Source: an uncultured Candidatus Saccharibacteria bacterium
GTDB taxonomy: Bacteria > Patescibacteriota > Minisyncoccia > Phycocordibacterales > CAIZLB01
Length of the DNA stretch: 64,000 nt
Assembly: GCA_964550955.1 (NCBI GenBank)
Contig: CAZKAF010000001.1
Location: forward strand, 99,951 to 163,950
Direction of reading: 5' to 3'
Program-made: the position numbers and the translations under genes
Part shown: in pieces, positions 3,793 through 52,710 of the stretch
Position numbering within the stretch: position 1 is the first letter of the stretch
Layout of the letters: each line of letters begins with the position of its first letter
The notes under the pieces: model-generated
The model's input: only the letters and a program-made list of their open reading frames with translations
Databases searched by the model: none
Told to the model about the DNA's origin: nothing

Positions 3793-4008
3793 ATGAACAT
3801 TCCAAGAATATTTGGTTTTGATGGCCTGTCTGCGGGCCTTTCGCTGCTGCTGTCATGCATTATTTTCGCAGTCTTCTTTTTCGTGATTAGAGAATTAGTG
3901 GCCTGGTATTGGAAAATAAACAGGGCGATTGAGCTTTTGGAAAAGATAGAAATTAATACGAGAAAGTCCAGCGGCAAATATGAAAAAGGGGAAGGGGAAA
4001 AGGAGTGA
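3793..4008 (+). CDS. small hypothetical membrane protein
   Basis: 71-aa ORF with one clear hydrophobic helix; no recognisable family. Confidence 0.3.
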   Translation: MNIPRIFGFDGLSAGLSLLLSCIIFAVFFFVIRELVAWYWKINRAIELLEKIEINTRKSSGKYEKGEGEKE

Positions 4009-35623: not shown

Positions 35624-36319
35624 ATGAAACCGATTACGACAGGACAGAGAGAGCAATTCGGAACCGTCGTCAAAGACGCGGCCCGCAAAGCGGCTGAAGA
35701 AGGGGTCACCGAACTTGAACAGGGTGGTGCTCTCGACGGCGACAGCATCCAGCGCGTCCTCGAAAAAGGAGGTGATCTGGCTGCCAAGCTGAAAGCGTTC
35801 GTGAAAACGACGCTTGCCGAAATGGCGGAAAGCATCCGCGGATGCCTCAAGTTAATCTCGGGAGCGGAAACGCTTACCCTTGATCCGACTGACGGCAAGA
35901 AGACCATCGCAAGGGCCGGCGACCTGTTCTTTTATCTCGACGGTGACTTCAAGGCCTATGGCTGCGACGTCCCCGGAAAACCGAGCCAGGGCGGTCCCGT
36001 CCAGGTTCACGAGATGGTCAAGGACGGTACCTTCGCCCAGATTTTTGGCGGATTGAGTGACAATCTCGATTCGTTGTGTCTGGAGCAGGACCAGATCATT
36101 CAGTTTGTCGAGAAGCACCGCAAGTGGCTTCGCACGGATGGGTACGGCACCTTCTTCCTGTTCAAGGTGAACGGAGAAGGCTTCGTTGCGAGCGTGCCCG
36201 TGCCCTCCGGTGGCGGCCTCTGCGCCGACGTCTCTCGCTTCTCGCGCGGCCTTGTCTGGTCTGCCCGGGATCGTCCTCGCGTGGTGGTTCCGCAACCCCT
36301 TGTGCCTCAGGTTCCCTGA
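35624..36319 (+). CDS. DGR target (variable) protein; C-terminal ~40 aa encoded by the VR
   Basis: 231 aa. The last 120 nt form the VR. The TR counterpart encodes Asn (AAC) where the VR encodes varied residues. Confidence 0.75.
   Translation: MKPITTGQREQFGTVVKDAARKAAEEGVTELEQGGALDGDSIQRVLEKGGDLAAKLKAFVKTTLAEMAESIRGCLKLISGAETLTLDPTDGKKTIARAGDLFFYLDGDFKAYGCDVPGKPSQGGPVQVHEMVKDGTFAQIFGGLSDNLDSLCLEQDQIIQFVEKHRKWLRTDGYGTFFLFKVNGEGFVASVPVPSGGGLCADVSRFSRGLVWSARDRPRVVVPQPLVPQVP
36181..36300 (+). repeat. DGR variable repeat (VR)
   Basis: About 120 bp aligned to the TR at 36668-36787; about 25 mismatches, every one at a TR adenine. Conserved 3' end GTGGTGGTTCCG. Confidence 0.85.
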
Positions 36320-36667
36320 ACCTTTGGCTCTTAGTCCCTTTGACCCTTTGTCCGCGTATGAAAATGCGTTGGCAGAGGTCAGGGGGATTTTTTTTATGCA
36401 GCGATGTCCGCGTTTACTAAAATCGCCGGCCGAGTGTATACTGAACATGCAATGCATAGACGCGTCTCGGCCACGGCTTGGATGCCATACTTGCGTCAAT
36501 GCAGGCTCGAGAATTTTGCCGGACACGTCCTGCAAAAGAGCGGGTCTGTCTTTTCAAATAAAAAATAATTAGTTGGTGCGACAAGCTGAAGGACTTCTAG
36601 GTCCTGCATAAGATTCAGCCCGTCCTGATTGGGCGGGCAGTGTACCAGATGGCTTGCCGCACGAATT

Positions 36668-36787
36668 CTTCGTTGCGAACGTGAACGTGAACTCCGATGG
36701 CAACCTCAACGCCAACGTCAATCGCTTCTCGAACGACAATGTCTGGAATGCCAAGAATCGTCATCGCGTGGTGGTTCCGAAACTCAT
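36668..36787 (+). repeat. DGR template repeat (TR), non-coding
   Basis: Adenine-rich copy of the VR with 13 AAC/AAT codons in the VR frame; not part of a credible ORF. Confidence 0.85.
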
Positions 36788-36798
36788 GATTTCTCTCA

Positions 36799-37161
36799 TC
36801 AAGACATGGTGAGAGTTTTGTTTTGGCGGGATTGCGCCAGAGGGCTTTGCAGTCCTTTTCGCCATCCTCCGAGCATCTTGCCTATTTCCTCAAGCTTCCC
36901 CGAAAGCTCTATGTATTTAGGAGTCGGCATCAGCTTGCTTTCCCATGCCAGCTGCATGAAGAACTTAAGGGCATCCAGCTTCGATATCGTGGTTCCGAGA
37001 ACATGGACTTTTTCTGCCGGCGCCATGTATATGCATGCGAAGCTCAATTCCAGCACTTCGAGAAAGATGCCTTCGATCTTCTGGCCCATGCCGAACCTTT
37101 CGGTTCTCGGGAAATTCCTATGAAGCAATAGCCAGGCTTGGTAGGCTTCCTTTTCTTTCAA
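36799..37161 (-). CDS. avd: Avd (accessory variability determinant), four-helix-bundle protein
   Basis: 120 aa. FPRTERFGMGQKIEG and KLEEIGKMLGGW match the Avd / 23S-rRNA-IVS four-helix-bundle family. TTG start. Lies on the strand opposite to TR and RT. Confidence 0.75.
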   Translation of the reverse strand: MKEKEAYQAWLLLHRNFPRTERFGMGQKIEGIFLEVLELSFACIYMAPAEKVHVLGTTISKLDALKFFMQLAWESKLMPTPKYIELSGKLEEIGKMLGGWRKGLQSPLAQSRQNKTLTMS

Positions 37162-37185
37162 GATTACGCCAGGGGTCGTTTTTGC

Positions 37186-37198
37186 GGGGGGGGGGGGG
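37186..37198. repeat. G13 homopolymer tract in the avd/RT divergent intergenic region
   Basis: gcgggggggggggggggca, seen directly. Confidence 0.8.
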
Positions 37199-37224
37199 CA
37201 GATTCATGGTTTGTATTGTGTAAT

Positions 37225-38223
37225 ATGAAAAAAATGAATATTTCCTACAACGATATCATATCTTTGGAAAATCTCTACGAAGCGTGGGCGGAGTTCGTCA
37301 ACGGCAAGAGACATAAAAGGGACGTGGCCTTGTTTGCATTAAATCTCTCGCACAATATTTTCGCGCTGCATGAGGAGCTGAAGAACAGGACGTATCGGCA
37401 TGGCGGATATAAGGCATTTGCCATCAATGATCCGAAGCCTCGAAGTATCCATAAGGCTCATGTTCGGGACAGGCTTCTGCATCATGCGGTCTATCGAACC
37501 CTGTACAGGTACTTTGACAAGAAGTTCATATTTGATTCGTACTCGTGCAGATACGCCAAAGGGACGCATAGGGCGCTCGGCCGCTTCCGTCATTTTTTCA
37601 ACAAGGTCTCTCACGGCAATCGCCGGACGTGCTGGGTGCTGAAGTGCGACGTTCGAAAATTCTTTGCGTCCATAGATCAGGGAATATTGCTGGACATATG
37701 CAAAAGGCACCTGCCGGACCAGGACATACTCTGGCTCATGCAGGATATCGTCGGCAGCTTTTATAGCACGGAAGCGGGGAAGGGCCTGCCTCTTGGAAAT
37801 CTCACGTCTCAATTGCTCGTAAACGTATACATGAATGAATTTGACCAGCATGCGAAGCATGTCCTCAAGCACCAGCATTACATTCGCTATGCCGATGATT
37901 TTGTCATCATGCATCACGATAAAAGCGAGCTGCAGAAGGCGCTTCCGAAAATAGGGGAATTCCTGCTCGATAATCTGAAATTATCGCTGCATCCCGACAA
38001 GGTGTTCATCAAGACGTTCGCGTCGGGCGTTGATTTTCTTGGCTGGGTCCATTTTCAAGATCATAGGGTTTTGCGAAATGCCACGAAGAAGAGGATGCTT
38101 AGAAATTTGAACGGAGGGGCCGCGAAAGAGGTCGTCCAGTCCTATCTCGGCCTCCTTTCTCACGGGAACGCGTTTGGGCTGAAAAGGAGGATCAAGGCCT
38201 TGATGCGCAAAACCATTGATTAG
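37225..38223 (+). CDS. DGR reverse transcriptase
   Basis: RT domains with the IRYADDFVIM (YADD) box. The N-terminus LENLYEAWAEFVNGKRHK is typical of DGR/retron RTs. ATG 37225 is preferred over the track start 37138, which would run through the G-tract. Confidence 0.9.
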   Translation: MKKMNISYNDIISLENLYEAWAEFVNGKRHKRDVALFALNLSHNIFALHEELKNRTYRHGGYKAFAINDPKPRSIHKAHVRDRLLHHAVYRTLYRYFDKKFIFDSYSCRYAKGTHRALGRFRHFFNKVSHGNRRTCWVLKCDVRKFFASIDQGILLDICKRHLPDQDILWLMQDIVGSFYSTEAGKGLPLGNLTSQLLVNVYMNEFDQHAKHVLKHQHYIRYADDFVIMHHDKSELQKALPKIGEFLLDNLKLSLHPDKVFIKTFASGVDFLGWVHFQDHRVLRNATKKRMLRNLNGGAAKEVVQSYLGLLSHGNAFGLKRRIKALMRKTID

Positions 38224-43114: not shown

Positions 43115-43885
43115 ATGAACATTTCATCGGGTTCCGTCAAGAAAGATTTGCTCGGGATTGCCTCGAAAGAAAAAGCCTCGGTTTACGCCTGGTTTTTCAA
43201 GACTGGAAAGGGCGGGTATGGCGAAGGCGATGCATTCATCGGCGTCACCGTTCCGCAGCAGAGAGTCATCGCTAAAAAATACTCCGCCCAGTTCATGGAC
43301 CGGCATGCCGGCGAGAAGCCCGAGAAGCTGAACTCGGGCTCTTTCGCCTGGATTCAGGAGTTGCTGAACGACAAAATTCACGAATGCAGGCTGTCCGCGC
43401 TGATGATTCTCGCATACCTGTACAAGCATAAGAAAGCTGATAGGCGCCTCAAGGAATCGGCGTACAAGCTCTATCTTAAAAACTTCAAGAACATAAACAA
43501 CTGGGACTTGGTCGACTGCAGCGCGAGGGACATCGTCGGCGGCTATTTGCATGAGTTCGGGCATGGCGATGTCTTGGCAACGCTCTCTGTCTGGGCGGAT
43601 TCAAGCCACCTTTGGACTCGGCGAATCTCCGTCATCGCGACGCATTATTTCATCGGCAGGGGAGAGTTAGGGCCGACGCTTTTCATTTCGAAAAAGCTTC
43701 TCGGCGACAGGCATGATCTGATTCATAAGGCGAGCGGCTGGATGCTGAGGGAAGCGGGAAAGAAGAGCGAAAAAGCCCTTACGCGTTTCCTTGACGAGCA
43801 TCATAAGCGAATGCCTCGAACGATGCTCAGATATGCCATTGAACGGCTGTCACCCGAGCAGAAAGCGCGTTATATGAAGAGATAG
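43115..43885 (+). CDS. DNA alkylation repair enzyme (AlkD-like HEAT-repeat, PF08713-like)
   Basis: 256-aa alpha-helical repeat protein, WDLVDCSARDIVGGYL region. Confidence 0.5.
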   Translation: MNISSGSVKKDLLGIASKEKASVYAWFFKTGKGGYGEGDAFIGVTVPQQRVIAKKYSAQFMDRHAGEKPEKLNSGSFAWIQELLNDKIHECRLSALMILAYLYKHKKADRRLKESAYKLYLKNFKNINNWDLVDCSARDIVGGYLHEFGHGDVLATLSVWADSSHLWTRRISVIATHYFIGRGELGPTLFISKKLLGDRHDLIHKASGWMLREAGKKSEKALTRFLDEHHKRMPRTMLRYAIERLSPEQKARYMKR

Positions 43886-43948
43886 AGATGGGCCGTATTT
43901 TGCCGTTTCAAAGCCGCGCCTTCCGGTTTTCAAGCGATTTGCCCGCCT

Positions 43949-43978
43949 TTGACTTTTCAGCGCTTTTTTTGCTATGAT
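43949..43978 (+). promoter_or_regulatory. candidate promoter for the tRNA gene
   Basis: TTGACT, 18-nt spacer, TATGAT, about 70 nt upstream of tRNA position 1. Confidence 0.4.
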
Positions 43979-44050
43979 GGGCAAGTTCGCTGAAGTTCGA
44001 GGCCTGGTTTGGCCGTCGAATGGGCGGACACTGAAAGCAGAATAAAACAT

Positions 44051-44559
44051 TCCCCTGTAGCTCAGCGGTAGAGCAATCGACTGTGAACGTGTCCTGCCTT
44101 TGATATACTCCAAAGTATGTTGAAAAAGAGGACATATGCTGATCGTGCGCCATATATGATTGAAGCTGTCAGAAAGCGGAGAATAAAGCTTCGCAAGATG
44201 GCCAGAGAGTATAAAGGCGGCAAATGTGAGATTTGCTAAATTCGCGAAGGCATAACGCAGCTTCCGGTACGAAAGTCCGGTCGCAAATAAGGTGAATTGC
44301 TGGAAGTCCTGATTCTCATGTCAGGATAATCAGCAGCCAAGCTCGGCAAGAAATTGCCTTGAAGGTTCAGAGACTATCCCTTCGGGGAGTAGTCGGATGC
44401 AGGTAGCAATGCAAAGCGTTCGACGAAGCGCCTTACGTCTAAACATGTATAAGTGCAGCAATGCAAAATTCATGCATGACGATGATATAGTCCACACCGT
44501 CAGTAATGATGGATAAACGTGTAATCGATTGGTCGTAGGTTCGATCCCTACCGGGGGAG
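44051..44559 (+). tRNA. tRNA gene split by a group I intron in the anticodon loop (anticodon UGU/Thr or GUU/Asn depending on exact junction)
   Basis: 5' exon: TCCCCTG-TA-GCTC-AGCGGTA-GAGC-A-ATCGA-CT... 3' exon: ...TGTAA-TCGAT-TGGTC-GTAGG-TTCGATC-CCTAC-CGGGGGA-G. The acceptor stem pairs across 435 nt. Confidence 0.7.
44083..44519 (+). ncRNA. group I self-splicing intron (no ORF)
   Basis: R element TTCAGAGACTAT (44366-77) and S element GATGATATAGTCC (44481-93) supply the P7 pairing GACTA/TAGTC. A G precedes the candidate 3' splice sites, a U precedes the 5' splice sites. Confidence 0.65.
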
Positions 44560-44561
44560 CA
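44542..44561 (+). repeat. attL: 20-bp core (tRNA 3' end)
   Basis: cgatccctaccgggggagca, identical to 52691-52710. Confidence 0.7.
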
Positions 44562-46137
44562 TTGAAGGATGAGAAGGCACGAAAGTGCCTTTTTGTCTTT
44601 GTGGCATAAGGGTATTATCTGGTTCGTAGCACTCTGAAAGCCTCGGCATCCATTCCACGAAATACTTAGCCAATAAAGTTAAATCCGACTTTATTTCTAG
44701 GCTGTTTTGCCAGAAGTTCGTAAACAATTGGTTGAACAAAACTCGCTTGTCGTCATTCTCTGCCATCTCATAGATTGCATCCGCGTTAAACGCCAATTCA
44801 TGGACAATGAGAGCTAGATTCTGGTACTCATCAGACTGATTATTAATACGAACCAGGGCGCTTTGGAAATTCTCTTCCTCAGCTGAAATATGGGCTATTT
44901 GGCGCTCACAGAATTCAAGCGGAACTGTACCTTCGAGCTTAGCCATATAAATTTTATCCTTCTTGGTTCGTATCATACCTAAGTGAGTGTTTAGACGATG
45001 AATTTCATTCTCGCGTTCTCCAATTTTCTCTTTGAACTCGCAACAAATAACATCCTCAATCCATTTGAGTAGGTCTTTGTTCTTGGGTGCAATTTTCTTG
45101 AATATGGGTCTAAGTTGCTCCTCAACCTTTTCTTCGCGGATATAGGTCTTTTTAGGGCATTTACGAGAGGTCAGGTGGTTATTGCAATGTCCGTACCAAT
45201 GACTCTTTTGCTTCTCCCAAGTCAAAGATTTGCCGCAGCCTTCACAGACAATCATTGTCTTGAATAGCGGGTTGTGAATATTGAATCGCGGCTGATTTAT
45301 CTTTCGCTTTAATATCTTCTGCACTTTATCAAATAGGTCTCTTCCAATTATTGGCTCATGCTTACCGCTGTATTTCTGGCTTTTCCATAAGAAAGAACCG
45401 TAATAGAAAGGGTCTTGAATTAAGACATGCAATCTCTTATGAAGAACTCTTTTTCCGCTTCTGGCGCGCAGACCACGACTGTAAAGCTCCTCTTCTAATT
45501 TTGTTAAAGAGTAGTTTCCAGTGGCGTATAAATCAAACATGTCGCGCATAAGCGGGGCAACACCCTTATCAATAACATGTATCTTCTTTCCCTTGTCTCC
45601 TATGGTCATATAGCCCAAAGGTGGTTTTGTTGGCAGCCAACCTTCAGCTATCTTTTCAACTTGCCCTTTCTTAACTTCTTCAGAAAGGTTAGCGATATAT
45701 TTCTTAGCTAATACGATTTCAATATCCCATCTGAACTTTTCATCAGACTTGGCATTTTTATGAATTACTAAGTTCTGTTTTACAAAGTGGATATATCTGT
45801 TTTCGTCTTGCTCAAGCCAATCATTAATAACAACAGCTTCCTTAAGATTTCTTGTAAGCCTGTCCACTTTCTCACAGAGTAAGTGAGATATATTATTCTT
45901 TACAAGAAATTCCATCATTTCCCCAAAGACCTTTCTTTGTTTCGAGCCGCTGGCGCTTTCAGCAATACAGAATTCTTTAATAAGGTTGAATCCCTTTTGG
46001 TCAGAACGTTCCTTTAGTAATTTACTTTGAGCGGGAAGGGAATAACCTGTTTCCTCCTGTTCTCTGGTAGAGACACGGCAGTACATGGCTGCGCGATTAT
46101 TCGCCCCAAGTGATGGGGCTTGTTTCTGGGTCTTCAT
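44548..46137 (-). CDS. large serine recombinase (integrase)
   Basis: N-terminal resolvase catalytic domain (AAMYCRVSTREQ). Recombinase domain. Zinc ribbon CEGCGK...CPKK. Coiled-coil. The last 4 codons overlap the tRNA 3' end. Confidence 0.85.
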   Translation of the reverse strand: MKTQKQAPSLGANNRAAMYCRVSTREQEETGYSLPAQSKLLKERSDQKGFNLIKEFCIAESASGSKQRKVFGEMMEFLVKNNISHLLCEKVDRLTRNLKEAVVINDWLEQDENRYIHFVKQNLVIHKNAKSDEKFRWDIEIVLAKKYIANLSEEVKKGQVEKIAEGWLPTKPPLGYMTIGDKGKKIHVIDKGVAPLMRDMFDLYATGNYSLTKLEEELYSRGLRARSGKRVLHKRLHVLIQDPFYYGSFLWKSQKYSGKHEPIIGRDLFDKVQKILKRKINQPRFNIHNPLFKTMIVCEGCGKSLTWEKQKSHWYGHCNNHLTSRKCPKKTYIREEKVEEQLRPIFKKIAPKNKDLLKWIEDVICCEFKEKIGERENEIHRLNTHLGMIRTKKDKIYMAKLEGTVPLEFCERQIAHISAEEENFQSALVRINNQSDEYQNLALIVHELAFNADAIYEMAENDDKRVLFNQLFTNFWQNSLEIKSDLTLLAKYFVEWMPRLSECYEPDNTLMPQRQKGTFVPSHPSMLPR

Positions 46138-46254
46138 GGTTGTGTTTGCAACCTTGGTTTGTCAGTGATATTCTTCGGGTATCACTTAACAACGAAAGTT
46201 GCTTTTGTGTGTTATCTAAAAGACCTCTTGCTTAGCCGCGGGGGTCTTTTAGTT

Positions 46255-46476
46255 TTAATTAAATAGCGTTAGTACAAGAATCAATACAGTAAAAGTGAGA
46301 ATCCATCCAAGTTTTCCGTATTTCTTTTCCCATTGGATATTTTCTTTGACAGCGTGCAACATTATTTCTTGTTCTGACATTTTGTAAACTTCCTTATAGT
46401 TTTCTACTTTGAACTTGGCTGAAATGGTAGCTTCCAAATCTTCGCGACTAGTTTTTTCTTCTTTTGTGATTGCCAT
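46255..46476 (-). CDS. small protein with C-terminal TM helix
   Basis: 73-aa ORF on the island. Confidence 0.35.
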   Translation of the reverse strand: MAITKEEKTSREDLEATISAKFKVENYKEVYKMSEQEIMLHAVKENIQWEKKYGKLGWILTFTVLILVLTLFN

Positions 46477-46701
46477 TGCTTTTCAATTAGGTTGATAACA
46501 AGGCAAACGAAAAAGCGACAGCCGTTGCCTTGCAACCCATACTGAAAGCACAAAGGCTCGCAATCTGGAAGGTCAGCTGCCGCTTTCTAGTCCAGATTGG
46601 TTGGACCACAGAAAAACAGCGCTGCCTTTGCGCGTAAATATTCAATATGGGTTGCTCTTACATTCTACCATACTGAATGAGGGTGGCAACTTGTGGCAAG
46701 G

Positions 46702-46875
46702 TCAGCCATCGTCTGATTTCTCCACTTCAGCATTAAAATAAGCCTCAAGTATCGTGGTCAATAGCTTAATCATGGAGGTCTCCTCAATAGCAGCAATCAT
46801 CTTAAGATTTTGGTGCAGCTTCTTGGGTATCCTCACAAGCACAGTCTTTTTGTTTTGATGTAAATTTGTATACAT
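46702..46875 (-). CDS. 57-aa ribbon-helix-helix (CopG/Arc-like) DNA-binding protein (not in ORF track)
   Basis: MYTNLHQNKKTVLVRIPKKLHQNLKMIAAIEETSMIKLLTTILEAYFNAEVEKSDDG. A beta-strand plus two helices, with the KxxLxRIPxxLHxxLK pattern. Confidence 0.4.
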   Translation of the reverse strand: MYTNLHQNKKTVLVRIPKKLHQNLKMIAAIEETSMIKLLTTILEAYFNAEVEKSDDG

Positions 46876-47555
46876 TTTGTTTTAGTCGCCCGACTTTTAC
46901 CTTCTAACCCCCTCCTGCGGGATGCAGTTGCTGGGTTTCTTTCTGTATCAGACGGATGCCTTTAGTGCAGCAGCTACCCTTAAGTATTGCTCATTTGTGC
47001 AATCACTTTTTCGAACTCTGCCTAAAGATGAAATGCTGCGGCGCTCTTCATTGAACTGGGCGAGAAGTCGTACACTCGTTTTCCCAGTTTTTCGCAAGAA
47101 CGTCTCAACACTCCTTGTTGTTTTTAACGCGCTCCCTCCTCAGTCGCGCCATTGTGTAAGTGATGAGTTTTACTTCTGCCCACACTTAATAGAAGGTTTC
47201 GTCTGAATTGTTCAAGGCTAAATTAATAGCCCTAAAGCCCCTTGGTGGTAAAGTCCCAAACACTAAGAGGCTTTAGGAGTATCAATCTTCTTGTTCTTTT
47301 GAAGTATCACAAATAAACCCAGATAAAACTGAGCCACTGATTGGGCTATTGTATTAAGTTCATCATCAGCAATGAATACACCTGCCTTTGCATTGATTTC
47401 TTTGAACTTCTGTATTTGTTCGGGTGTTAGCTTCACTCATTGAGAATATCAGTAACTCTTATACACTCTACATACACCCTCCCAAGTCTATATTCAGAAA
47501 ATAACCCTTATTTCAGGCTGTCATCAATTACTTATTAACATGTACAAGGAAAAAT

Positions 47556-48191
47556 CTAGATTAAAGTTATGTCTAAATCAATCGTGTAGCCTTCGCCTCG
47601 AATACCTCTTATTGGCTTTGCTCCAGTATTAAGGAGTTTTATTTTTTCCATTACTTTATTTGTCTTTGTGATTAGCTCGCCGACTCGAATTCCATGATTG
47701 CCGAATGCAGACTGAATATCCTTTGTTTTAAGTGGTCCGTCAGTGTTGGCGAATAAAGTAAGTAATCTATAACGTTGAGATTCTTTGCTTACAGTACCTA
47801 TCTTCGTATCATCCATATAAATAGCCCCCTCAGAGTCTATTTTTATCTTAGTCTTTTTTGTACCAGTATATTGAGCGGGGTCAAAAGTCTTTGTATTAAC
47901 ATCGACAGCGTAACTTTCTGCCAAACCAACTTCATCAATTAAAGAAATGTCATCTGTCTTGATTACAAAGCATCTCTTCTGAGTGCTGCCTTTTTCTTTT
48001 TCATAACAGCCATAACCATGCTTAAAATCCTCAACAATTCCTAGCTGTTTGAAATGAAGTAGAATTTCGTACACATCTTGTCTTGTAAGGTCTTTTTGCA
48101 GCTCAGATATGGAAATACCCAGAGTCTTGCCACCAAACTGCTGGTTCTGCTGTTGAAGATAACTGAGGATTGTTCGCTCGTCTGATTTCAT
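47556..48191 (-). CDS. hypothetical protein with N-terminal winged-helix-like region
   Basis: 211 aa. Start codon overlaps the track start of the divergent Xis-like gene. Confidence 0.45.
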   Translation of the reverse strand: MKSDERTILSYLQQQNQQFGGKTLGISISELQKDLTRQDVYEILLHFKQLGIVEDFKHGYGCYEKEKGSTQKRCFVIKTDDISLIDEVGLAESYAVDVNTKTFDPAQYTGTKKTKIKIDSEGAIYMDDTKIGTVSKESQRYRLLTLFANTDGPLKTKDIQSAFGNHGIRVGELITKTNKVMEKIKLLNTGAKPIRGIRGEGYTIDLDITLI

Positions 48192-48231
48192 GTATATTTA
48201 CAGTATAACTTGCCACAAGTTGCCAAACAAC

Positions 48232-48414
48232 ATGCCTTCAAAAACACCCCAATTTTATACCCTGAAAGAGGCTTCTGAATTACTCAAAGTAAGTGTAAGG
48301 AGTCTATACCGTTATATTCAGACCAAAAAGTTGGTGGCAACAAAGGTTGGCTATTGGCGAATAAGCAAAAATGACTTAGACAGTTTTATTAAGGATGGCT
48401 CAAACATTAAATAA
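48232..48414 (+). CDS. excisionase-family HTH DNA-binding protein (MerR-superfamily Xis-like)
   Basis: YTLKEASELLKVSVRSLYRYIQTKKLVATKVGYWRISKNDLDSFI. The ATG at 48232 is preferred over the track start 48190. Confidence 0.55.
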   Translation: MPSKTPQFYTLKEASELLKVSVRSLYRYIQTKKLVATKVGYWRISKNDLDSFIKDGSNIK

Positions 48415-50266
48415 AATGAAACTGTATCTTAAATCATTGGAGCTAACAAATTACCGTACTTTCGGTAGTGAAACCCTAGATATAGATAAAGAGATAACTC
48501 TTCTTGTCGGGGCTAATGAATCAGGCAAGACTAATCTTCTGGATGCACTAGAGCTGCTTGATGTTGAGAAGACATTTAATGATTCGGATACAAAAATTAA
48601 CTCTGAATACTCCGCAAAGAATTACGAGCCATATCTAAGTTATAGAATGGAGCTGACTGAAGAAATGCAAACTAAGCTTAAAAGGTATGCAAGATACTTT
48701 GAAAAGAATAACGAGGTTTTTATAAATCGTAATGGGAGCGATATTGACGATATAACAGTAGATACGGTAAATGACGTAAGCTATGATTTCCCAATTGCAT
48801 ATAGGAACGTATCAGATGTAGAACAGAAACTCATTAGCAAGAACGGCATTGTGGCTCTTTCCCCGCAGAGTTACACACTTACTTCCATTAATTATTTCAA
48901 GAACTCAAAACTTTTCAAAGACGGAAAGGTTATAAAGATTGAAGATAAAGAAAGAAACAGGCTCCTAACTGCAAAAATAAAAGAAATTGTCTTGGAAAAT
49001 ATGCCATCTGTGTTTCTCTGGAAGTATTCAGATGCCTACTATATTCCCAAAGATGTACCGATTGATTTTTATAATCAGAAGGACAAATTTCAGTCTGTAA
49101 TAAATCTCTTTAAGTTGGGGGACATAGATGAAGATAAGATTGTTACACACCTAACGAATAGAGACAGTGTATACATAATCAATTTTTTGAATACTTTGTC
49201 TAAGAAAGTATCACTTGTGCTGAATAACACTTGGAAACAGAGGAAAAATATAAAGCTCAATCTTCATTTTAAAGAAACTTGGATAGAGATTCTGGTAGAG
49301 GAGAAGGACTATCAAATTGACCCAAATAAAAGAAGTGAAGGGCTACAGTGGTATCTTTCGTTCCTTATCAATTTTCGTTCAAAACTACAGACTCTCAAAA
49401 ATAATATAATCTTGTTTGACCAGCCTGGAGACAAGCTTCATCCTGGCGGACAAAGAGACCTTATGGAAAGATTTGAAGAGATGGCTGAATTTAATCAGAT
49501 TGTTTATTCAACTCATACGCCGTTTACAATAAATAAGGATTATCCAGAAAGAGTTAGGCTTATAACTAGACCCGAGGATGACAGTAAGATTATCAACAGG
49601 CTAAGTAACAGAGAGATTTTTAAGGATGAGTTATTGAGAAGCTCACTTGGTTTAAGTTTGTCTGATGTATCTCCTGTGGCTGAGAAAAATATTCTTGTTG
49701 AAGGTTTGTTGGATAAGCTCATATTAACGGATTTTATAGAGAAATTGAAAAAGTTTAAGTTCAGTATCAAGCTGAACCAGTCTGTTATCATTCCAGCGCA
49801 CAGCGCTTCGAAGATTCTTTATTATGCTAATTTTATTAAATCAAACGGATTAGACGTTTTAGCGATATTTGATGGAGACGCAGCAGGGAAGGAGGCAATT
49901 GTAGAAAATAAAAAGAAGAAGGTTTTGGAAAGTAGGGAAATCTTACTAGTGTCTTTAGGCAAAGGGACTGCACAAACTATAGAAGACATTATCCCGATAA
50001 AAATTATTACTGATTCTATTAATGAAATAGGAGTGCTTATTGATAAAAATAAATTTACTCCAATTGCATTAACGACAACACCAGTAATGCCACTTATAAA
50101 GGGTCATTTCGCAAAACTTGGAATGGATTTTTCAGAATCAGATAAACATCTGTTTTCAATTAAGGTATTGGAAAAGTTTAAGAAGATGCCCGTTAAGGAA
50201 ACGGATTTAAAGGGTAGTCTGTCAGGACTCTATGAATTAGTTAAAGAAATAAAAAAGAAGTTATAG
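48395..50266 (+). CDS. OLD-family nuclease: N-terminal ABC-type ATPase + C-terminal TOPRIM domain
   Basis: P-loop LLVGANESGKTNLL. Walker B/D-loop ILFDQPGDKLHP. H-loop YSTHTP. TOPRIM ILVEGLLDK...IFDGDAAGKEA. Confidence 0.7.
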   Translation: MAQTLNKMKLYLKSLELTNYRTFGSETLDIDKEITLLVGANESGKTNLLDALELLDVEKTFNDSDTKINSEYSAKNYEPYLSYRMELTEEMQTKLKRYARYFEKNNEVFINRNGSDIDDITVDTVNDVSYDFPIAYRNVSDVEQKLISKNGIVALSPQSYTLTSINYFKNSKLFKDGKVIKIEDKERNRLLTAKIKEIVLENMPSVFLWKYSDAYYIPKDVPIDFYNQKDKFQSVINLFKLGDIDEDKIVTHLTNRDSVYIINFLNTLSKKVSLVLNNTWKQRKNIKLNLHFKETWIEILVEEKDYQIDPNKRSEGLQWYLSFLINFRSKLQTLKNNIILFDQPGDKLHPGGQRDLMERFEEMAEFNQIVYSTHTPFTINKDYPERVRLITRPEDDSKIINRLSNREIFKDELLRSSLGLSLSDVSPVAEKNILVEGLLDKLILTDFIEKLKKFKFSIKLNQSVIIPAHSASKILYYANFIKSNGLDVLAIFDGDAAGKEAIVENKKKKVLESREILLVSLGKGTAQTIEDIIPIKIITDSINEIGVLIDKNKFTPIALTTTPVMPLIKGHFAKLGMDFSESDKHLFSIKVLEKFKKMPVKETDLKGSLSGLYELVKEIKKKL

Positions 50267-50566
50267 ATTTAACTTATGTTTTAGAGAGGAAAATATCGCA
50301 CCTACCAAAAAGCCAGCCAGGACACCAATCATGAAAAGTACCACTCCTGCGGCGTATGGATTATTCACTAATTCATTGAATTTTTCAGGATTACTTTTGT
50401 TCATTTCTTGGTAAGCGGCAACAACGATGACACCCCAAAAAGCACTGAAGCCTAAATATTCAAAATCGCTTATTGTCTTTCTGGAACCGTTGCCTTTTCT
50501 GTAACCCCACACCAAGCCAAAGCCAGCCAGTATGATTAGAAAGTAAGTATATGTATCTATGTCCAT
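50261..50566 (-). CDS. small membrane protein (coordinates approximate)
   Basis: Three TM helices beginning MDIDTYTYFLIILAGFGL. The track ORF extends to 50695, but the upstream part looks non-coding. Confidence 0.3.
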   Translation of the reverse strand: MDIDTYTYFLIILAGFGLVWGYRKGNGSRKTISDFEYLGFSAFWGVIVVAAYQEMNKSNPEKFNELVNNPYAAGVVLFMIGVLAGFLVGAIFSSLKHKLNL

Positions 50567-50747
50567 AGTGGCACAAATACTACATTTCTTGCGGCGAAAA
50601 GCAACCTCACGGTGCATATTAAAGTTGAGTCTTGAAAGGGTGTAAAGAGTGCTTTGTGGTACAATTATGCTAACATCAGTACACCCTATGACCATCTCAA
50701 ATAATCAATGTTTGCTCACAAATTTTGTCCTTGTTCCAGTCAATTCC

Positions 50748-51350
50748 ATGGAGCCTGCAACTTTCTTTACTGATAAAATAAAGGCAAAGTTTGTGGAGAT
50801 TTATGGAGATTCCAGCAAGCCGACAATAACTCAATTTCCAGAGCTGTTGGTAATTTTTGATGCTGTAAATCAAATTAATGTTTCTATAGAAAGAGGAAAG
50901 GCTGTGATTACTGACAGTAAGGTAACCAATTTCAATCAACGAGACCTAAATAAGTTATCTCAGTTTGCACACTCTATATTTAATGTTTTAGAGTTAGGGA
51001 AGTTAAAAGCTTATGGCTTTAATACAATTTGCTTAATGGATTTAGAAGCGGGAACTAATTCTTCGAAGTTGTTAAGCGATAGCTTTTTAAAGCTTGATAA
51101 ATTTACTTCAAGTGAAGGGGAAATAATTGGCGGAGGTGTAAGATTAATTTATAAAAATGCCTCGTCTGTGAGGAATGACCTAAGAATTGACCCATTCTTT
51201 GCTGAAGGTTCCCTTGATGAGACAGAGACGATAAGAGTGAATCAGAATTCAAATTTTGATAAGCAGGTCTTGCCAGATTTATCAGAGTTACAAGGTTGTA
51301 TTTCAGATATTTACAATGCATTGCCAGTTTTAATTGGAAAGCTTATATGA
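50748..51350 (+). CDS. hypothetical protein (island cargo, gene 1 of 3)
   Basis: The ATG at 50748 is in frame with the track GTG start 50649. The stop overlaps the next start (ATGA). Confidence 0.45.
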   Translation: MEPATFFTDKIKAKFVEIYGDSSKPTITQFPELLVIFDAVNQINVSIERGKAVITDSKVTNFNQRDLNKLSQFAHSIFNVLELGKLKAYGFNTICLMDLEAGTNSSKLLSDSFLKLDKFTSSEGEIIGGGVRLIYKNASSVRNDLRIDPFFAEGSLDETETIRVNQNSNFDKQVLPDLSELQGCISDIYNALPVLIGKLI

Positions 51351-51775
51351 TTGAACATAATTTAATTAAAATCGTGACAAGCGATAATATTTCTGTGACT
51401 ACTCAGCCTATGGGTTTGGGGGTTGCCTTGTCAGACACATACATTATCGATACCTCAAAGTGTATTGATAATGTAACCCAATTTCAATATGTAGGCTCTG
51501 TTTCTGCCCTTACGACTAGTTTTACAATCACGCATAGAAACGACTCTGGTTTCAGTAATTCTGATTTAAAGAGATTAAACAAGATTGTATACAACTTTCA
51601 GGATACATTGCCTCATACAGTTATATTTGAAAAAGTTAAGAAATATGAACATCGTTTTAACTTAAAGTCTGAGGATTTTCACACAAAGTGGGAATTAGGA
51701 GAATTACCTGCGACCCCTGAATTTTATGACTGGAATAACTCCTACAAGACTTTAAATTTAAATGTCAGTAAGTAA
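51347..51775 (+). CDS. hypothetical protein (island cargo, gene 2 of 3)
   Basis: Translationally coupled; overlaps the next gene by 14 nt. Confidence 0.45.
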   Translation: MIEHNLIKIVTSDNISVTTQPMGLGVALSDTYIIDTSKCIDNVTQFQYVGSVSALTTSFTITHRNDSGFSNSDLKRLNKIVYNFQDTLPHTVIFEKVKKYEHRFNLKSEDFHTKWELGELPATPEFYDWNNSYKTLNLNVSK

Positions 51776-52244
51776 ACGTGTACAGTATATAAAAGATACT
51801 ATTAAAAGTTATAAAGATATTTTTGAATATCCAGAGGTGTCTTTAAATTCAGTAAAGACTAGCAATAATAGTATCTACTTTCCTCGGGAAGTTGATTTTG
51901 ATAAGGCTGAGGGTGCCGAATTGAAAGGGGGAGTCGGTTTCCTCTCTGTTTTTGAGGATTATGATGAAACCAATAAAAAAGTCAAAGGATATATTTATCG
52001 ATTTTCATCTGACGAATATACGTACCTAGTAGAACATAAAAAATCAAAAGAATGTGTAGATACATATTTTAATTTTCATTACCAGGATGACGATAAGCAT
52101 GAACCTCACGTTTCATTTCTCCACAATTCAATTCGATACAATTCTGCAAATATTCAACTGGATGAATTTCTTGATTTCGTTAAGAGAACCTTTATGGGTC
52201 CACGAAAAGGAATGAATTATAGAGTTTGGCATTCGAGGAATTAA
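51762..52244 (+). CDS. hypothetical protein (island cargo, gene 3 of 3)
   Basis: 160 aa; no family recognised. Confidence 0.45.
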   Translation: MSVSKRVQYIKDTIKSYKDIFEYPEVSLNSVKTSNNSIYFPREVDFDKAEGAELKGGVGFLSVFEDYDETNKKVKGYIYRFSSDEYTYLVEHKKSKECVDTYFNFHYQDDDKHEPHVSFLHNSIRYNSANIQLDEFLDFVKRTFMGPRKGMNYRVWHSRN

Positions 52245-52690
52245 TTCTGGGCTTTTTCCTCCTCTAAGAGCGGGTATCCTACCGTCTATCTAAAATAACG
52301 TTTAGGAAACTGCCAGTACCTAAATTTGAAAACCCTGAAATCCGCCATGCGTTGCTCGAAGGGTATGTACTTTTCTATCATATTTAATGATACGGTCTAT
52401 ACCCATGCTAATACTTTTGACACGCTCGCTCCATAATACTTACCAATCCCCAGGATTGCATGCGTATGTATCAGTATGACTATGTATATGTAAGGTTACT
52501 TAGCTGACTATCGCCAATAAAGTCCTTATTTGCTGTATCGAAACAGAAGGATGGGGGAAAACCTCATCCCATTTCATGGTTCGTATAACATCCCTCCATG
52601 CGAGCAGAAAAAGAAAGGGCGCCAGCAAAGCTGGTGCTTTTTCTTTTTCCTGTGACCTGGGTCAGCGATCGAATTTCGACGAAGGAGGGG

Positions 52691-52710
52691 CGATCCCTAC
52701 CGGGGGAGCA
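52691..52710 (+). repeat. attR: 20-bp direct repeat of the tRNA 3' end
   Basis: cgatccctaccgggggagca. Confidence 0.7.

Follow-up and report, generated by a model that had tools for sequence, protein, structure and literature searches.

A predicted tRNA-Asn(GUU) gene split by a subgroup IA group I intron with a homing-endonuclease relic, beside an integrated island, in a Saccharibacteria contig

We examined 64,000 nucleotides of contig CAZKAF010000001.1 from an uncultured Candidatus Saccharibacteria bacterium (hereafter the window; all coordinates are positions in this 64-kb stretch, position 1 being its first letter), in which an earlier reading, referred to here as the original prediction, had proposed a tRNA gene interrupted in its anticodon loop by a group I intron at 44051-44561. 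On the strength of its sequence, we are highly confident that a tRNA-Asn(GUU) gene is interrupted here, between U35 and U36, by a 437-nt subgroup IA intron that is predicted to self-splice and carries a dead homing-endonuclease gene (HEG), with an integrated island attached to the 3' end of this tRNA gene.

Results

Isotype and splice junction of the split tRNA gene

That a group I intron interrupts the anticodon loop was borne out both by the cloverleaf obtained after splicing and by an Rfam search, in which RF00028 (Intron_gpI) matched 44195-44513 on the plus strand with 67.6 bits (gathering score 50; E = 5.5e-15). The match spans the full model (positions 1-253 of 253) and is the sole Rfam match within the window. 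The two tRNA halves lie as originally described, the 5' half beginning at 44051 and the 3' half finishing at 44559 with the discriminator G, and they form a cloverleaf only after intron removal. Two in-silico splices, each taking out 437 nt, give a perfect 73-nt cloverleaf: splicing at 44082|44520 yields the anticodon UGU (Thr), and splicing at 44084|44522 yields GUU (Asn). In the latter case, the 5' exon (44051-44084, plus strand; defined by the in-silico splice and the ARAGORN cloverleaf) contains the acceptor strand UCCCCUG, the D arm, the anticodon-stem strand AUCGA and the loop CUGU up to U35. The intron (44085-44521, plus strand) then lies between anticodon nucleotides 35 and 36 and ends with the omega-G at 44521, and the 3' exon (44522-44559, plus strand) supplies U36, A37 and A38, the anticodon-stem strand UCGAU, the variable loop, the T arm, the acceptor strand CGGGGGA and the discriminator G; CCA is not encoded.

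The original prediction had left the anticodon as either UGU or GUU, an ambiguity that comparative evidence settles in favour of GUU. The alternative, a tRNA-Thr(UGU) gene with its intron between positions 33 and 34 (junction GACU|UGUAAUCG), agrees with the output of ARAGORN, which reported no tRNA in the window in default mode and, with the intron option, one split gene called tRNA-Thr(tgt) i(33,437) with an intron of 437 nt; its cloverleaf is equally good, and it too has a U before the 5' site and a G before the 3' site. For comparison, one genome per species was scanned for the P7' motif and then for an Asn-like 3' half, which returned 120 loci; ARAGORN called an interrupted tRNA in 74 of them, and 73 of these calls were parseable. 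All 73 homologous split genes follow the 35/36 junction rule, their 5' exons ending in CTGT and a G, equivalent to the terminal omega-G44521 of the window, preceding TAA, which agrees with the predicted splice sites after a U on the 5' side and a G on the 3' side. By comparison, only 42/73 combine a terminal G with the right anticodon at the Thr(UGU) 33/34 junction, the other 31 being without one or the other.

The pairing of the 5' exon with the internal guide sequence (IGS) also separates the two junctions. In the window, the P1 5' strand CUGU|G (44081-44085, plus strand) pairs with the guide CGCAG (44256-44260, plus strand), which forms the P1 3' strand, and U44084 pairs with G44257 as the splice-site G.U wobble. 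Guide sequences were located by an nhmmer profile in 65 introns, in all of which GCAG is invariant and lies 37-39 nt (mostly 38) upstream of P4. Exon CUGU pairs with this GCAG so that U35 faces the G, whereas at the threonine junction U33 faces the A, and the wobble is therefore absent. The P1 pair beside the wobble (intron +1 with IGS-1) is G-C in 25 introns, A-U in 16, C-G in nine, U-A in three and G.U in five, making 58/65 paired; the mean in 10,000 shuffles was 31 and the maximum 42, none reaching 58. This covarying pair adjoins U35, not U33.

Two other ways of finding the guide were rejected. Taking the longest stretch complementary to the exon as the guide led instead to P4' (GCAGCCAAG) and, in the window, to GUAGUCGG at 44389-44396, and a strict regular expression for P4 located 24 of 74 guides and was replaced by the profile. 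The stretch GUAGUCGG lies where P7.2 starts and could form 8 bp, wobbles included, with the 5' exon's end, UCGACUGU; this complementarity is probably due to chance, and the stretch could compete with P1 for the 5' exon.

Uninterrupted counterparts of the predicted Asn product also exist. A scan of metagenome contigs for the 28-nt Asn splice junction found an uninterrupted tRNA-Asn gene in at least 120 contigs, and in six of them (L125, L161, L190, L197, L217 and L227) the gene is identical to the Asn splice product at 72/72 positions. In two of these, L125 and L217, the four genes upstream of the window tRNA have homologues as well, in the same order and with 42-66% amino-acid identity.

The acceptor stem pointed in the same direction. 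The pair U1-A72 and the discriminator G73 of the window gene are shared by 3/3 listed tRNA-Asn genes of the fetched loci that are uninterrupted; in contrast, 3/3 tRNA-Thr genes listed from these loci start with GCC. Among the isotype comparisons with tRNAs of the fetched loci, only this signature was informative: whole-body identity to 65 uninterrupted tRNAs was weak, scoring Lys, Met and Asn alike (0.79-0.82). A BLAST search of E. coli genomes with the spliced product did not discriminate either, its best matches being tRNA-Ile, tRNA-Lys and tRNA-Asn at 76-88%, on plasmids and prophages. The threonine call has a published precedent, since the same miscall was reported and disproved by sequencing the spliced RNA of homologues (PMC13011429). 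Because four independent lines agree, namely the junction rule, the guide pairing with P1 covariation, the identical uninterrupted genes and the acceptor/discriminator signature, the sequence identifies the gene as tRNA-Asn(GUU) with an intron between positions 35 and 36, and the threonine reading is extremely improbable.

A contig from a second run (L124, a Logan contig from SRR16797977) is 100% identical to window 43587-49137, which indicates that the junction of tRNA, intron and island did not arise through faulty assembly of a single data set. Upstream of the gene by ~70 nt, a plausible promoter (43949-43978, plus strand) combines TTGACT and TATGAT across an 18-nt spacer, and its -10 hexamer is preceded by TG; it has 10/12 consensus matches, and this single site compares with 1.6 expected in shuffles. 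Downstream, a hairpin AAGGCAC-GAAA-GUGCCUU followed by a T-run was seen by eye at 44574-44594; the terminator scan did not flag it.

Structure of the intron

The conserved core of the intron, all on the plus strand, could be assigned helix by helix. The R-like element UUCAGAGACUAU (44366-44377) and the S-like element GAUGAUAUAGUCC (44481-44493) were found as predicted, as was the P7 pairing of GACUA (44372-44376) with UAGUC (44488-44492). P7 is the guanosine-binding helix; its complete 5' strand, G(A)GACUA at 44370-44376, pairs with 44488-44493, where the 3' strand UAGUCC lies within the Rfam match and forms standard pairs. P2 is a hairpin CCGG(U)AC-GAAA-GUCCGG (44264-44280) for which RNAalifold predicted six pairs, all with compensatory changes, and which is also present in the minimum free energy (MFE) fold. 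P3 (44288-44294 with 44429-44435) encloses P4 (44298-44303/44330-44335) and P5 (44306-44312/44321-44327), both with standard pairs, P6/P6a (44336-44366, with a GAAA loop), the P7 5' strand, P7.1 (44377-44388, with a UUCG loop) and P7.2 (44392-44424, with compensatory changes). An extended P8 with a GCAA tetraloop (44436-44481) and the P9 hairpin CCGUCA-GUAA-UGAUGG with its GUAA loop (44497-44512) are supported by both the alignment and the MFE fold. Every pair of helices P2-P9, P7.1 and P7.2 is standard in the window.

Covariation was assessed in an alignment of 32 intron cores. Unaided, RNAalifold recovered P2-P6, P7.2, P8 and P9 and part of P7.1, with compensatory changes in 38 of 54 pairs, and missed the P7 pseudoknot; P7 is invariant across all 32 introns, and the P3-P7 pseudoknot is of the group I type. 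When the full structure with this pseudoknot was imposed, 84.1% of cells were paired, compared with 70.2% in shuffles, and the covariation score was 0.327, whereas shuffles gave 0.128 and sliding the structure by 1-3 columns gave no more than 0.126; double changes occurred in 45/71 pairs. In this projection P2 and P9 lay one column off register, owing to the bulged U44068 of the window, and were 53% and 67% paired; in the RNAalifold register they show covariation. All columns invariant across the 32 relatives are kept in the window, including P7, J8/7, the omega-G and the guide GCAG, and the single-sequence MFE fold contained P2, P3, P4, P5, P8 and P9 (z = -3.7).

Relative to the Rfam model, P7.1 and P7.2 form a 50-nt insertion, and both have compensatory changes. 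Such hairpins between P7 and P3' are the mark of subgroup IA. Because these extra hairpins lie between the P7 5' strand and P3', the intron has, as judged from its sequence, a subgroup IA architecture.

A homing-endonuclease relic in the P1 loop

According to the original prediction, no homing-endonuclease open reading frame (ORF) was present. An intact gene is indeed absent; complete absence was not upheld, as the loop of P1 (L1) holds the remains of one, a 170-nt insert at 44086-44255 (plus strand). The distance from splice site to guide is 4-25 nt in short homologues and ~300-330 nt in homologues of 519-590 nt, whose L1 encodes proteins of ~101-109 amino acids, and the window DNA aligns to both ends of these ORFs. 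The relic ORF, MLKKRTYADRAPYMIEAVRKRRIKLRKMAREYKGGKCEIC followed by a stop codon (44117-44239, plus strand; codons 44117-44236), corresponds to the N-terminal 40 amino acids of an HNH-type homing endonuclease and is 53-70% identical over this length to the N-termini of 11 intron-encoded proteins. In the DNA alignment, a clean in-frame deletion of 153 nt (51 codons) removes GY...HH...CxxCH, with a GAA-to-TAA change at the junction. The ORF consequently ends after the first CxxC, and the HNH catalytic motif with its zinc-binding cysteines is absent from it. A Pfam search of the relic ORF gave no match; intact homologues cover the whole PF01844 profile, weakly and below the cut-off (E = 4e-4 to 0.014).

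The sequence EGITQLP remains in frame downstream of the deletion. In intact genes (introns L046, L082, L116, L051 and L054), the C-terminus EGITQLP... is encoded by GAAGGCAUAACGCAGCUUCC, which comprises the 3' side of L1, the guide and the P2 5' strand (44243-44266 in the window), so that the end of the HNH protein and the ribozyme share nucleotides. This segment would thus have been kept because the ribozyme needs it as guide and P2. The L1 insert, as its sequence indicates, is an inactive relic of an HNH homing-endonuclease gene: with the HNH motif deleted and a stop codon in place, an active enzyme is impossible, and the intron is probably immobile and vertically inherited. An 8-bp hairpin, GAUAUACU-CCAA-AGUAUGUU (44102-44121), encloses the relic ATG at 44117; by eye, the alignment has a similar GGUAUAC...GUAURCC hairpin at the equivalent place in HEG-bearing homologues, and it may be an element that sequesters the start codon.

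The decay of the endonuclease gene is clear, and with 170 nt of non-functional sequence in L1 the whole insertion might be regarded as decaying and splicing-dead, the gene as a pseudogene and another tRNA-Asn copy as the one in use, all the more as our view of the tRNA genes is confined to the 64-kb window. The core nevertheless retains all of its helices and the columns that are invariant in its 32 relatives, and the exons are identical to functional-looking uninterrupted genes. A large L1 is moreover tolerated, as intact HEG inserts of ~300 nt are common among homologues, and the interrupted gene is often the sole tRNA-Asn copy in published complete genomes (PMC13011429). We consider a pseudogene unlikely for these reasons, and favour an intron that can still be removed from a working tRNA-Asn gene.

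The island at the 3' end of the tRNA gene

The same tRNA had been proposed as the integration site of an adjacent island, and a repeat of the tRNA 3' end, a drop in GC content and a recombinase gene at the border all support this. The attL core is a 20-bp direct repeat, CGATCCCTACCGGGGGAGCA (44542-44561, plus strand), made up of the tRNA 3' end and the two following bases; an exact second copy at 52691-52710 (plus strand) forms the attR core, with zero copies expected in shuffles. The island between them is ~8.1 kb long (44562-52710), with a GC content of 0.35-0.42 inside and 0.49-0.56 in the flanks (~0.52 outside). The gene directly beside the tRNA encodes a large serine recombinase of 529 amino acids (44548-46137, minus strand; Pfam Resolvase, Recombinase and Zn_ribbon_recom). 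The stop codon of this gene (44548-44550) lies inside the att core and the tRNA acceptor strand, and the ORF crosses the attachment site.

As the island adjoins the tRNA, the recombinase ORF overlaps the tRNA 3' end and viral contigs, too, hold tRNA genes split by group I introns, the tRNA and its intron might themselves have arrived with the island as part of its attP; this is highly improbable, since no more than the final 20 bp of the gene recur, what lies upstream of the attR core is not tRNA-like, GC falls only downstream of the tRNA, and the syntenic contigs L125 and L217, which extend 350-750 nt past the gene, have tRNA-Asn downstream of the same four host genes and show no recombinase homologue. 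In L125 and L217, the tRNA-Asn gene lies ~1.65 kb further from the last upstream gene than in the window, and the genes downstream of it are unlike those of the window. The split tRNA-Asn gene is thus best placed on the host chromosome.

Elsewhere, homologues of the recombinase (25-43% identity) lie near tRNA-Asn genes with or without an intron, in L046 (4193-5734), L033 (2661-4130), L042 (7131-8000) and also L054, L083, L016, L198, L211 and L178; in L046 and L033 the recombinase gene adjoins the tRNA 3' end, as in the window. By sequence and position, this suggests a recombinase family that targets tRNA-Asn.

The cargo of the island includes a gene for an HTH_17 protein (48190-48414). Its main component is an OLD-family nuclease gene (48395-50266), whose product combines an AAA_15 ATPase with an OLD-like TOPRIM domain; the three small ORFs after it have no family matches. 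The best PADLOC model for 48395-50266 was Old (84.5 bits), and the OLD-family region is probably an anti-phage module.

Relatives and distribution of the intron

The nearest exon matches came from Saccharibacteria metagenome-assembled genomes (MAGs), and the nearest intron relatives from MAGs of Saccharibacteria and other Patescibacteria. Beyond Patescibacteria, the tRNA-Asn 35/36 intron was found in contigs labelled Cyanobacteria, Nitrospira, Elusimicrobia, Omnitrophota, Planctomycetales, Margulisiibacteriota, Limnocylindria, Syntrophales and delta proteobacterium, some with HNH genes (the loci outside Patescibacteria are L003, L017, L026, L031, L038, L049, L050, L056, L061, L072, L089, L100, L113 and L122). 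The same kind of split tRNA-Asn gene occurs in two contigs labelled Candidatus Pacearchaeota archaeon, L004 (JAGVXA010000008.1) and L013 (JAFCDH010000004.1), the latter with a truncated HNH ORF; for a similar archaeal-labelled case, mis-binned bacterial scaffolds were suspected (Williams 2020, bioRxiv 10.1101/2020.01.27.920355).

In IMG/VR viral contigs, Intron_gpI matched L253 (176-404, 96 bits), L267 (1556-1754, 62.5 bits) and L356 (3192-3390, 66.4 bits), in each case at or within ~30 nt of an Asn-type pattern match and among other tRNA genes, from which it appears that phages, too, carry group I-interrupted tRNA genes of the tRNA-Asn kind. Another viral contig, L350, carries GOLLD RNA.

Possible intron-less alleles in the sampled community

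One Logan contig (L001, SRR16797981), which includes the upstream genes, stops at the 5' splice site (...CAATCGACTGT; its position 3970 corresponds to window 44084), and contigs of two other runs continue past 44084 into the intron. The stop is consistent with a branch in the k-mer assembly graph at which intron-containing and intron-less alleles share the 34-nt exon; either a single population or a co-occurring relative could account for these alleles. That the intron is still in flux in the sampled community, being lost or retained with its endonuclease already dead, is a tentative idea to which we give a low probability. If one population held both alleles, a Patescibacteria-like lineage would have been caught in nature at a late point of the homing cycle, and one could test directly whether selection maintains an intron without a HEG, for instance because it regulates the supply of tRNA-Asn, or whether such an intron persists only because its precise deletion is hard.

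A candidate retroelement elsewhere in the window

A reverse transcriptase of 361 amino acids is encoded at 37138-38223 (NCBIfam group II RT-like, 138.6 bits, below the cut-off; PADLOC RT, 171.7 bits). It is preceded by two 121-nt repeats (36176-36296 and 36663-36783) that are 78% identical, and the second has A at 25 of the 27 mismatches, the signature of a template/variable-repeat pair. From these features, the region 36176-38223 looks like a diversity-generating retroelement.

Discussion

We propose that the promoter-like site at 43949-43978 probably drives transcription of the pre-tRNA, whose 5' exon CUGU would pair with the guide GCAG (44257-44260) to form P1, with the U35.G wobble at the cleavage site. 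A free guanosine bound in P7 would attack after U44084, the omega-G at 44521 would then occupy the guanosine site, and the freed 3'-OH of U35 would attack after the omega-G. Exon joining would create the anticodon loop CU-GUU-AA (junction GACUGU|UAAUCG) and a functional tRNA-Asn. For the window intron we infer this chemistry from the established group I pathway and from work on two homologous introns, which self-splice precisely in vitro: the ligated tRNA was sequenced, and mutating the omega-G to C halts the reaction at the intron-3' exon intermediate (PMC13011429).

As for its history, the intron would formerly have carried an HNH gene in L1, which lost the 51 codons over the HNH motif and gained a stop codon; the dead endonuclease would represent a late stage of the homing cycle. 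In an independent event, the ~8.1-kb island would have attached at the 3' end of the same tRNA, regenerating the last 20 bp of the gene.

Some observations weigh against this account. For a serine recombinase, 20 bp of identity in the att core is unusually long. A by-eye search for P10, the pairing of the 3' exon with the guide region, found none that was convincing, and P1 is short, at 5 bp, with the 170-nt relic in L1 between its strands, so that folding could be slowed.

Group I introns at position 35/36 of tRNA-Asn(GUU) have been described in Patescibacteria by Nakagawa et al. (bioRxiv 2025; mSystems 2026, PMC13011429), nearly all of them of subgroup IA; for the class label Asn.4Ug these authors cite Williams 2020, in which tFind widened the known types of intron-interrupted bacterial tRNA genes (bioRxiv 10.1101/2020.01.27.920355). 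Four members carry HNH genes, and HEGs were reported only in introns longer than 500 bp; relic HEGs are not mentioned in PMC13011429, and the window intron sequence was not found in the part of its supplement that was covered. The window intron is a further member of this class, and its degenerate HEG is the only feature that goes beyond it. Current understanding is therefore left unchanged by this locus, which nonetheless illustrates several points.

For the study of intron evolution, it adds a stage absent from the published survey, an internally deleted HNH gene of which both ends survive. For annotation, it reproduces a published pitfall, in that ARAGORN and tFind miss members of the class or miscall them as Thr(UGU) with a 33/34 intron (PMC13011429); when standard finders miss the gene or call it tRNA-Thr, the genome seems to be without tRNA-Asn, and completeness estimates suffer. 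Finally, one small tRNA gene appears to host two unrelated selfish elements, the intron in its anticodon loop and the island at its 3' end.

The window locus shares with the Patescibacteria members of the class the tRNA, the insertion site, the rule of a U before the 5' site and an omega-G at the end of the intron, the IA core with P7.1, the ARAGORN miscall as Thr and, with some of them, an HNH gene, which in the window is a relic. It differs in length, its 437 nt falling between the members without a HEG (~190-350 nt) and those with one (~520-590 nt), because the HNH gene is internally deleted. The introns of cyanobacterial and plastid tRNA-Leu(UAA) and of Azoarcus tRNA-Ile(CAU) belong to subgroup IC3, are without P7.1/P7.2 and lie at 34/35 or 36/37. 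Like the window intron, which is predicted to self-splice as they do, they are group I introns in the anticodon loop of a bacterial tRNA, with a P1 formed from anticodon-loop nucleotides and GNRA tetraloops in peripheral helices; unlike them, the window intron has the P7.1/P7.2 hairpins of subgroup IA and sits at 35/36.

The td intron of phage T4 (I-TevI) and other HEG-bearing IA introns resemble the window intron in their IA core with P7.1/P7.2, in an endonuclease ORF that is looped out and in the placement of the ORF start in a hairpin. In contrast to them, the host gene of the window intron is a tRNA, and its ORF is of HNH type, truncated, and located in L1, with a 3' end that overlaps the guide and P2. 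The island, for its part, is like other tRNA-targeting islands in its repeat of the tRNA 3' end, its foreign composition, the recombinase gene beside the tRNA and its probable defence-gene cargo, but it has a large serine recombinase instead of the usual tyrosine integrase and yet a 20-bp repeat.

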